Source: a virus | Taxonomy: Duplodnaviria; Heunggongvirae; Uroviricota; Caudoviricetes | IMG/VR virus record: IMGVR_UViG_2681813314_000020 | Span: 1 to 11,315 of that record | DNA length: 11,315 nucleotides | Strand: one strand, 5' to 3' | In this document: piece after piece, positions 6,001 through 9,000 of the stretch | Layout: every line of letters starts with the position of its first letter | Position numbering within the stretch: position 1 is the stretch's first letter | Program-made: the position numbers

Positions 6001-9000
6001 ATTCCCCAGACGAGAGTGACGACGCTGACGATTGTAGAAAATCTCAATGTATTCCCGTATTACTGAGATGGCCTCATCCCGGCTCTTAAAACGATAGTGG
6101 CTCAGGCTCTCATTTTTCAGCGTTCCCCAGAAGCTTTCCATCGGAGCGTTGTCGTAACAGTTACCTTTACGCGACATTGATGTTTTCAGACCAAACTGCT
6201 CCTGTATGACCCGGTAATCGTATGCGCAGTACTGTGAACCTCGATCGGAGTGGTGGATTAGCCCGGCAGGTGGGCGCTGGCTCCTGAGCGCCATAAACAG
6301 GGCTTTACCTGTCAGCTCTTTTGTCATGCGCTCTCCCATGGCGTAGCCGACAATTTCGCACGTATAAACATCTTTGATGCCAGCGAGGTACAACCATCCC
6401 TCCTGTGTGGCAACATACGTCAGGTCCGCCACCCAGACCTGATTTGGTGCTGTAGGAGCGAACGTCTGGTTCAGCAGATTTGGCGCAACTGGCAGATTGT
6501 GGTTCGAGTTCGTAGTCGCTCTGAACTTGCGTTTCTGCTTACAGCGTAGCCTTAGCTCCTTACGAAGACGTGCCAGTCGGTCACGACCAACGATGATGCC
6601 ATTCTCTGCCAGCTCCGTCTGGAGCCGCCGGGTTCCATATGTTTCGCGAGTGCGGATATGTGCCACCTTAATCTCCAGTTTTAGCCGCTCATCACTTTGT
6701 TTTCTGTCTGAGTGTTCATGCTGTACCCAGTTGTAATAACCGCTCCTGGATACACCAAATACCTGACACATCGCTTCAATGGGGAATTGTTGTCGCCATT
6801 GTTCGATTAACGCGTATTTTTCAGCGACTCCTGGGCAAAATACGCAGTTGCTTTTTTTAATATATCTCGCTCAAGGCGAGCTTCATTTAACGCCTTACGC
6901 AGTTGCAGAATTTCAGATTCCAGTTCAGCCACCGTGCGGGAACCAGGAGTACCGAGCCCTTTTCTGGCGGCGGTAACCCATTGTCCTAAAGTGCCTTCAG
7001 GAAGAGATAATCGGGAAGCGCCTTCACTGATCGAAAGTTGATTTTCAAGAACCGTTCTGACAGCTTCGGCTTTGAACTCTTTAGAGTAACGTTGGGTTTT
7101 TCTGCTCATTATTAGCTCCTTCTGATGCCATTCTATTTCAGGAAGGAGTGTCCGTTAAACTCAGGCTACCTCATTATGATCATCGCTGATGGTGACTGTA
7201 ACCGTACCGTTTGGTGTTTCCGTGTTACCCCACGTACCGACTTTTTTCGGGAAGGCTTTTGATACAGCTTTAACGAAATCCCCTCTGACCTGGGTCGCCT
7301 CCAGCATGCCCTTAATCGTACAGTTCTGGTTAATCGTGACATTGTTGAGCGCTCCTGAGTTCGCATTCACACTGCCACTGATATCCGCATTTTTCGCCGT
7401 CAGTCGCCCGTCTGGTGTCAGGGAAAATGCCGGAGGATTACCGCCGCTGGTAATGGTGGGAGCCGTCAGATATTTCAGGAACACTTCATTCATGAATATC
7501 TGATCGCCCTGACCAACAAACATCGGCTTTGTGTTGCCATTCGCAGGATTAATCATCGCAATCCTGTCTGCTGCCAGCAGCACCTGACTCTGCATGCCGT
7601 CGGGGGTGTTCTCAATACCGGCACCGATACCCGCAATATAAAGGCGTCCGTCCTGCATCTGCTGCAGCTTCACTGCCCACATGCTGTTCAGGTTATTATT
7701 TGTATCAACCTGAACCTTCTGTATCTGCTGGATCGCTGCACTCTGGTCTTCCAGTTTCTTATTGACGGTCTGTGTTATTTCATTGCTGACATCCGTTATG
7801 GACGTCCTGATTTCAGTCAGGTCAGGCGCAAGCTGACCGTTATCAATCTGCGTCCACAGCTCCTGAGCCAGATGGGTTTTCCCTATCTCGCCTTTGAAAA
7901 AATCCAGATAGCCGGATGCATCATCACTCGGCTGACCAACAGCCTCCACGAATGCCGATTTGCCAACGGTGTTCACACTGCGGATATAAAAGTAATAATC
8001 ATGGCCCGGTTTGATATTGATACTGGCGGCTATCCAGTACAGCCCCGTGCCAAGGTAGCGGGCTGTGGTTTCAACCTGCCTGATATCGGTAATCCGCGTT
8101 TCCGAAAACCAGAACTCAAACTGTACCGTCGGGTCATACACCGCAAGACGCGGGACCGCTGTTATCTGAAAATAGCCCGGTGTCAGCTCAATCGTGGCGG
8201 GTACCGCAGGTGCATTAATCCTGAACGTGGTGGTGGCCGGTTCCCCCTGCTGGCCATAACTGTTAATTGCCCTGACTGTCAGGGTGTATTCCCCGAGCGG
8301 CAGACCACTGAAACGATGCTCTGTATCCGCGGTGATGGCGGTGGTCACCAGACGGCTGTCCTGACCGCTTCCACTGGTCAGGCGCAGACTGAAGCGCACA
8401 CCCTTCACCACCCGCGGCGTGTCCCATTTCGCCTGCGCCAGATACCGGCCGTCAGCTGCGCTCACCTCCACCGTCAGGTGCTGCACTGCCGGTGGGATGA
8501 CGCTGTTCAGGGAACCTGACTGCGGCTCAAAGCGGGCACCGTTATCCACGATGGCTTCTTTTTCCGGTACGTGCTGCACCGCCGTGATGGCAAAGGTGCC
8601 GTCCGTGTTTTCCCGGATGGAGACACAGCGGAACAGGCGACGGCGCAGTGACGGCAGGGAGAGTCCCCACACCCCGTATGTCTCCACACCATCAGGCAGG
8701 GTACTGACCTGTATCCGGTCCGGCGCGGGGTGTGCGGTGATGTCCACACTCACCGGCTTACCGCTGCCGTTAATCNNNNNNNNNNNNNNNNNNNNNNNGC
8801 ATTAATCCTGAACGTGGTGGTGGCCGGTTCCCCCTGCTGGCCATAACTGTTAATTGCCCTGACTGTCAGGGTGTATTCCCCGAGCGGCAGACCACTGAAA
8901 CGATGCTCTGTATCCGCAGTGATGGCGGTGGTCACCAGACGGCTGTCTTCTCCGCTTCCGTTGGTCAGGCGCAGACTGAAGCGCACACCCTTCACCACCC

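Follow-up and report, generated by a model that had tools for sequence, protein, structure and literature searches.

A clean allele switch in an IS600-truncated prophage J fragment, and the case for a gap-closure chimera

A fragment of the lambda-type tail gene J in a draft Escherichia coli scaffold passes from one allele, B, to another, A, at a single point, within 14 nt that the two alleles have in common (positions 8317-8330 of the window). We favour, with some reservation, the explanation that this junction is an in silico join made during gap filling of a short-read scaffold and does not represent a physical DNA molecule. The window, that is, the whole stretch of DNA analysed, is 11,315 nt long and constitutes the entire draft contig CYDM01000088.1 (assembly GCA_001284885.1). 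It comes from a draft E. coli scaffold full of gaps, in which the J gene belongs to a prophage and all genes of the window lie on the minus strand. Three runs of N (3360-3380, 5917-5919 and 8776-8798) split it into four pieces, c1 to c4, with the following features.

1-3359, minus strand: piece c1, comprising stf (5' part), lom (787-1386) and 1.9 kb from the 3' end of J allele A
1454-3359, minus strand: 3' part of J in c1, used as the allele A comparator
3381-5916, minus strand: piece c2, IS600 followed by a pure B-type J fragment, used as the allele B comparator
5917-5919, no strand: run of 3 N between c2 and the IS600 of c3
5920-8775, minus strand: piece c3, IS600 identical to that of c2, followed by the hybrid J fragment
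5920-7173, minus strand: IS600 of c3, identical to 3381-4634 and adjoining the J fragment
7161-8774, minus strand: 537-aa open reading frame of the fragment; it runs on for 13 nt into IS600 and stops there
7174-8330, minus strand: B-type part of the J fragment, comprising the 3' region, a 167-nt stretch and six B-type sites at 8268-8316
8317-8330, no strand: switch interval, 14 nt identical in A and B, flanked by A at 8316 (B-type) and G at 8331 (A-type)
8331-8775, minus strand: remainder of the J fragment, which is A-type (21 sites)
8776-8798, no strand: run of 23 N between the hybrid J fragment and c4
8799-11315, minus strand: piece c4, which contains 2.1 kb from the 5' end of J, B-type, together with the final 47 codons of tail assembly gene I
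8799-10930, minus strand: 5' part of J in c4, B-type at 27 of 27 informative sites
about 11175-11315, minus strand: 3' end of gene I, which precedes J

A single switch from allele B to allele A

The original prediction described the fragment as base-for-base allele B up to 8316 and base-for-base allele A from 8331 to the gap, and ungapped comparison bears this out in full. Positions 7174-8330 show no mismatch to the B copy at 4635-5791 over 1157 nt, and positions 8317-8775 show none to the A copy at 2901-3359 (offset 5416) over 459 nt. When 7174-8775 is compared with the B copy (4635-5916), the first difference is found at 8331, with nine more up to 8448; the last difference from copy A is at 8316. 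The chimeric sequence across 8307-8340 reads CTGAAACGATGCTCTGTATCCGCGGTGATGG; across the same interval the B version contains CCGCAGTG, and the A version contains AACGGTGC and further on CCGCGGTG. The neighbouring pieces are pure, being B-type at 4635-5916 and 8799-9362 and A-type at 2685-3359 at all informative sites.

The partition of informative sites into a B side and an A side has no exceptions. Six B-type sites lie in the near-identical part of the gene (8268, 8277, 8295, 8296, 8307 and 8316), the divergent 3' part adds about 267 more B-type substitutions, and between 8331 and 8736 every one of the 21 sites is of the A type. Positions 7174-8100 are about 66% identical to allele A, and 8101-8267 form the 167-nt stretch, which is common to all alleles. 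With 273 informative sites on the B side and 21 on the A side, the chance of so clean a partition under random assignment is ~1e-32. Both parental sequences can be identified in the window, and the clean switch between them is beyond chance.

The reading frame stays open through the switch, which corresponds to residues 149-153 of the 537-aa fragment. This position lies inside the Pfam domain Ig_J (PF24421, residues 86-189), a region that also gives a sub-threshold fn3 match, so that the 'central FN3-like' location proposed earlier is a fair description. The A and B proteins differ at six residues in the switch segment, five of which are A-type and one B-type in the fragment. Pfam recognizes Ig_J (1.7e-41), Ig_J_second (PF24489, 2e-40) and Phage_Tail_Tip (PF09327, 1.2e-31) in the 537 residues, and the fragment has no Pfam match to the C-terminal receptor-binding domain Ig_GpJ_C, which occupies residues 1027-1157 in the intact allele of L006. 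IS600 cuts the 3' end of J 326 nt ahead of its natural end. The N-terminal FNIII-A and Phage-tail_3 domains are not contiguous with the fragment, which starts at the gap at 8776, and the overlapping piece c4 is a different allele. Judged by its domains and its borders, the gene piece is an IS600-truncated pseudogene of a lambda-type gpJ, devoid of the receptor-binding domain. The exchange between tail-fibre alleles named in the original prediction would accordingly leave host range unchanged in this case. In the sibling scaffold L017 the final 326 nt of the B-type J occupy 4538-4863; they are outside the window.

Overlapping pieces and gap edges in the scaffold

Both IS600 copies are about 99% identical to the annotated IS600 and encode an orfA of 100 aa and an orfB of 272 aa. 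Comparison with the annotated element in L001 places the ends of the copies at 4634 and 7173, with the left end, TGAGGTAGCC, correct at 7173; the coordinate given previously for the junction between J and IS600 (7173/7174) is confirmed by this direct comparison. An extent of 3381-4644 for the first copy, which would make exactly 1264 bp and was suggested by BLAST matches running 10-20 nt beyond 4634, was dropped, as the comparison with L001 puts the end at 4634. Of the 1264 bp of IS600, 1254 bp are present, and what both copies lack is exactly their 10 terminal nt at the edge of the N run. The junction between IS600 and the B-type J had no matches in GTDB representatives, IMG/VR or complete E. 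coli genomes.

The pieces of the scaffold are not colinear. At each of the three N runs the flanking pieces fail to abut: they overlap in J coordinates or bring J up against an IS end. Piece c1 meets an IS600 end across its N run. The 3-N run is out of register with the true IS end, with J sequence at 5910-5916 in the place of IS600 bases 1-7. The overlap between c3 and c4 spans 564 nt of J and includes 21 differences, and the 5'-ward continuation of allele A in three related assemblies (L006, L017 and L018) is unlike c4. Since every N run separates pieces whose positions in the gene overlap, the scaffold is a linearized tangle of alleles from different prophages and not a real tandem array. 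This sequence-based reading also corrects the earlier description of the hybrid as one copy beside neighbouring copies: with four J pieces that overlap in gene coordinates, it is no separate member of an array. A real tandem duplication of IS600 plus J fragment was considered and ruled out, as the gap-side IS ends match no real junction register.

Piece c3 is also redundant. It is the same as c2 over 2,411 nt (3381-5791 corresponds to 5920-8330), after which the continuations of the two differ. Its left end is that of c2 (IS600 base 11), its right end is that of c1, and it holds no private sequence or variant, so that the junction is its sole own contribution.

The gap edges themselves carry a regular signature. 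The IS600 copies end 10 nt before the IS terminus, which is a natural stop because IS600 is multi-copy. Pieces c1 and c3 end at the same J coordinate, exactly 10 nt before A diverges from B and from a third allele, A', seen in sibling scaffolds. The two longer N runs measure 21 (1 + 20) and 23 (3 + 20), and the 3-N run fits a 21-position gap in which c2 was re-extended by 18 nt from an earlier edge at 5908, which is the exact end of the B piece in the sibling scaffolds L017 and L018. The left edge of c4 and the break at the equivalent of position 5908 are both consistent with k = 67.

GapFiller is described as trimming gap edges by 10 nt, extending them base by base with 30-mers (29-nt overlap), halting at ambiguous positions, and closing a gap once the two extensions share at least 10 nt, the default being n = 10 (PMC3446322). 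In the Sanger pipeline, Velvet (k 66-90% of read length) is followed by SSPACE and finally by GapFiller with 120 iterations, and its authors caution about false joins (PMC5320598). The edges described above look like GapFiller trimming with t = 10, and it is from these signatures that we infer the use of SSPACE and GapFiller; a literature search by the record accession returned no paper on how the assembly was made.

Related drafts contain precedents. In L017 and L018, siblings in IMG/VR, alleles A and B are 100% identical to those of the window and occur together with A', in chains of overlapping J pieces that are split by single N's and show kilobase-scale duplicated extensions at gaps. In L017 an 86-nt inverted J fragment is fused to the A-type J through a 12-nt shared string, with no N between them, which on its sequence is evidently a short-overlap misjoin. 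Chains of J pieces of the same kind are also present in L045, L015/L016 and L014. The hybrid piece itself was not found in L017 or L018.

Occurrence of the junction elsewhere and its possible origins

We searched for the junction at several lengths. The 85-mer at 8293-8377 had no exact match in IMG/VR or in GTDB representative genomes, while in IMG/VR the parental versions were found at 10 loci (A) and 8 loci (B). A 41-mer across the switch was absent from IMG/VR and from 241 million metagenome records, and an exact look-up of the chimeric 530-aa product returned the source record alone. A degenerate pattern retrieved ~106 natural copies, whose bases at 8307/8316/8331 form the haplotypes AAA (72), GGG (27), AGA (5), GAA (1) and GGA (1), and the chimeric AAG did not occur. 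The best database match to the full 1602 nt was 98.6%, and among 5,426 complete E. coli genomes the closest match to the 206-nt junction region had 3 mismatches. No independent occurrence of the junction was found in the related genomes searched. This absence is modest evidence only, because the pure A version of the 206-mer also lacks an exact match in the complete genomes (best 99.0%); the B version has many.

Two of the 5,426 complete genomes, L104 and L105, do contain the 41-mer. They are not instances of the same chimera, since they carry an isolated G at 8331 on a B background and are B-type again from 8361, an allele pattern of 'bbbbbb a bbbb'.

The origin that we prefer, closure of a gap between pieces of different alleles, would have proceeded in a few steps. 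The genome carries several lambdoid prophages with J genes that are near-identical in the middle: an intact allele A with lom and stf behind it, an allele B interrupted by IS600 and, as in the siblings, probably an A' too. A scaffolder could have lined up the allelic pieces one behind another with tiny gaps, and a gap filler would then have trimmed 10 nt from each edge and extended both edges with 30-mers. With closure permitted at an overlap of at least 10 nt, a B-type extension from the IS600 side may have met an A-type piece inside the 14-nt stretch and been merged with it. The hybrid piece does lie between gaps of a non-colinear scaffold, and the 14-nt join is no shorter than the 10-nt closure minimum. 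We infer the closure event, like the identity of the pipeline, alongside what was observed directly: the allelic pattern, the non-colinear order, the redundancy of c3, the gap edges and the absence of the junction elsewhere.

Several observations speak against this explanation. The simplest place for a misjoin, the 167-nt stretch at 8101-8267, was not used. In our reconstructions of seed contigs and extension fronts, no geometry tried put the closure at 8317-8330. The only artefact class left is the rarer one, closure on a short overlap, the commonest (k-mer) class being excluded. In other genomes, J alleles that reside together often share long identical tracts, and natural a/b mosaics with nearby switches exist, which brings in the principal competitor of gap closure.

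In this competitor, the J genes of two lambdoid prophages resident in one host would have undergone a RecA-type crossover or gene conversion; the reads would then carry the junction, and the scaffold would still be tangled. We consider it a possible but rather unlikely origin. It is not far-fetched, because co-resident alleles of other genomes share such tracts, with the differences between them clustered, and because natural alleles are mosaics in the same a/b states, two of them (in L003 and L004) going from b to a one site later than the fragment does. The genome contains both exact parents, and the switch between them is single and clean; k-mer assemblers and 30-mer extension output a junction only if reads hold it. 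Two real copies would moreover yield just such pieces, sharing IS600 and the B-type 3' part and diverging at 8331. Exchange between resident lambdoid prophages has been shown experimentally in E. coli O157 (PMC2669165).

Other points count against recombination. One J copy beyond the number in the siblings is needed, because pure B junction k-mers are also present in c2 and c4, and either two identical IS600 insertions or one wrong attachment of IS600 has to be assumed as well. The piece brings no private variant or flank, and its junction is in no other assembly searched, including the siblings with identical A and B. Efficient exchange by RecA usually needs roughly 20-30 nt of identity, more than the 14 nt available here, although mismatch repair can put end points anywhere.

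The original prediction had named homologous exchange and assembler path switching as the two candidate origins. Exchange and assembly artefact are indeed the right pair to weigh; the form given to the artefact does not hold, as the 14-nt interval is too short for it. A k-mer path switch would have to be made either directly, which is impossible in 14 nt for any k of at least 17, or by way of a rare allele with G at 8331 on a B background. Ordinary path switching is excluded because 14 nt is less than any plausible assembly k and less than the 29-nt overlap of GapFiller. The indirect route has some substance: L104 and L105 carry such bridging alleles, so that the 41-mer exists in nature, and a second switch, to A, would be possible in 8332-8360, which is identical in A and B and measures exactly 29 nt, the GapFiller overlap. 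The bridging allele is nevertheless rare (2 of 5,426 genomes and none of the ~106 fetched copies) and this lineage shows no trace of it, and of ten A/B-identical windows of at least 29 nt between 8101 and 8785, one of them 167 nt long, none was used. We regard path switching in either form as very improbable.

Least probable of all, by a little, is an independently acquired natural third allele, an ancestral mosaic that merely resembles A and B: database J alleles are mosaics of the same polymorphisms, with the b-to-a change of L003 and L004 one site away, but against it stand 1157 nt without a difference from the local B and 459 nt without one from the local A, a best database match of 98.6% over 1602 nt and at least 3 mismatches in the junction region across 5,426 complete genomes.

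If the junction were real, it would represent a strain-specific gene conversion, caught while both exact parents remain in the genome and located beside an IS600 insertion that is likewise strain-specific, and would offer a snapshot of prophage tail-gene mosaicism arising within one host genome. It would also be an ordinary recombinant of an already inactivated gene, with host range unaffected, as follows from a J copy that is disrupted by IS600 and without its receptor-binding domain. Resident prophages are well known to recombine and J alleles to be mosaic, and the biological importance of the junction is small. Its bearing on curation is more practical. Draft genomes of E. coli with multiple lambdoid prophages recurrently hold chains of J pieces with tiny N runs and occasional 10-14-nt joins, and such records can seed false calls of 'recombinant tail fibres', inflated J copy numbers and false IS600 duplications.

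Relation to known systems

The gene concerned is most readily compared with gpJ of lambda and of the lambdoid prophages of EHEC and EPEC E. coli. The fragment has the same domain order (Ig_J, Ig_J_second, Phage_Tail_Tip), its DNA is 96-98.6% identical to annotated gpJ genes, and the window keeps the gene order I, J, lom, stf of these prophages. Unlike gpJ of lambda, it is a fragment, with its 5' part missing at the gap, its 3' end cut by IS600 and no Ig_GpJ_C. The insertion agrees with annotated IS600, of the IS3 family, in its identity, in having orfA and orfB and in its left end; it differs from the full element in the loss of the terminal 10 nt at the gap edge, and the other flank and the 3-bp target duplication lie outside the window.

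For the switch itself there are two points of comparison. In the chimeric phages derived from Sp5 and Sp15 of O157 Sakai, recombinants were shown physically by PCR and transduction (PMC2669165). The fragment shares with them a pair of near-identical resident alleles and one product that switches once from one to the other; here, in contrast, the switch is seen only as a consensus sequence inside a gap-filled scaffold. The false joins of SSPACE and GapFiller resemble the fragment in their tiny N runs between overlapping pieces, in edges that stop 10 nt short of natural stops and in a join within a shared string of at least 10 nt, with the difference that the pipeline is here deduced from the edges.

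Gap edges and a duplicated IS600/J unit

Three runs of N interrupt the window:

3360-3380, run of N
5917-5919, run of N
8776-8798, run of N

Their lengths are compatible with 1+20, 21-18 and 3+20, and the gap edges lie exactly 10 nt before natural stop points; in two cases this point is the IS600 terminus, and in two it is where J allele A diverges from alleles B and A'. Together, these offsets and lengths are the signature expected of the 10-nt edge trimming of GapFiller, a gap-filling tool. The window also carries a perfect duplication of 2,411 nt (3381-5791 versus 5920-8330), each copy of which is preceded by an N run and consists of IS600, minus 10 terminal nt, and 1,157 nt of J allele B. 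It is probable that one of the copies, if not both, represents an in-silico extension rather than a second insertion.

The IS600 insertion and the surroundings of J

The following coordinates relate to the insertion in allele B:

7161-7173 and 4622-4634, IS600 end next to J-B
L017 (a sibling draft) 4538-4863, counterpart of the missing J-B 3' end

IS600 is positioned 326 nt ahead of the natural end of the gene, and the J-B 3' end, together with its own lom and stf, is absent from the window. No match to this insertion was found in complete E. coli genomes, IMG/VR or GTDB representatives. The element shares only ~98.7-99% overall identity with E. coli IS600 copies; at 3383 (IS600 base 13, the third base past the gap) it carries A, versus G in the annotated copy of comparison locus L001 (TGACAATAGC in the window versus TGGCAATAGC).

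On the opposite side of J, the window contains:

~11175-11315, minus strand, last 47 codons of tail assembly gene I
within 10931-11315, intergenic region of ~250 nt between gene I and the J start at 10930
~10969-10995, hairpin in this intergenic region

The I-J intergenic region is conserved beside J in several IMG/VR loci.

A third J allele and related drafts

A third allele is present in two sibling drafts:

L017 6139-8430, J allele A'
L018 1987-4278, J allele A'

Its 3' part is A-like, it is B-type over 8268-8373, and it is mixed beyond. In the window (at the equivalent of 5908), as in the sibling contigs L007 and L009, contigs end at or near sites of A/A' or B/A' divergence; therefore, the genome behind the window probably has an A'-like allele as well, though the scaffold lacks it.

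One related draft contains a further anomaly:

L017 (IMGVR_UViG_2695420569_000026) 8432-8517, inverted 86-nt J fragment, reverse complement of window 9866-9781

This fragment, originating from the J 5' region, is joined to the 3' part of J-A with no intervening N, and both sides of the fusion share a 12-nt string (ATAACGGCGTGG). It is clearly a short-overlap misjoin. A number of independent prophage contigs from E. coli drafts (IMG/VR loci L017, L018, L045, L015/L016 and L014) are built as chains in which single N's separate three or four J pieces that overlap one another, which looks like a recurrent scaffolding artefact where a genome holds several lambdoid prophages.
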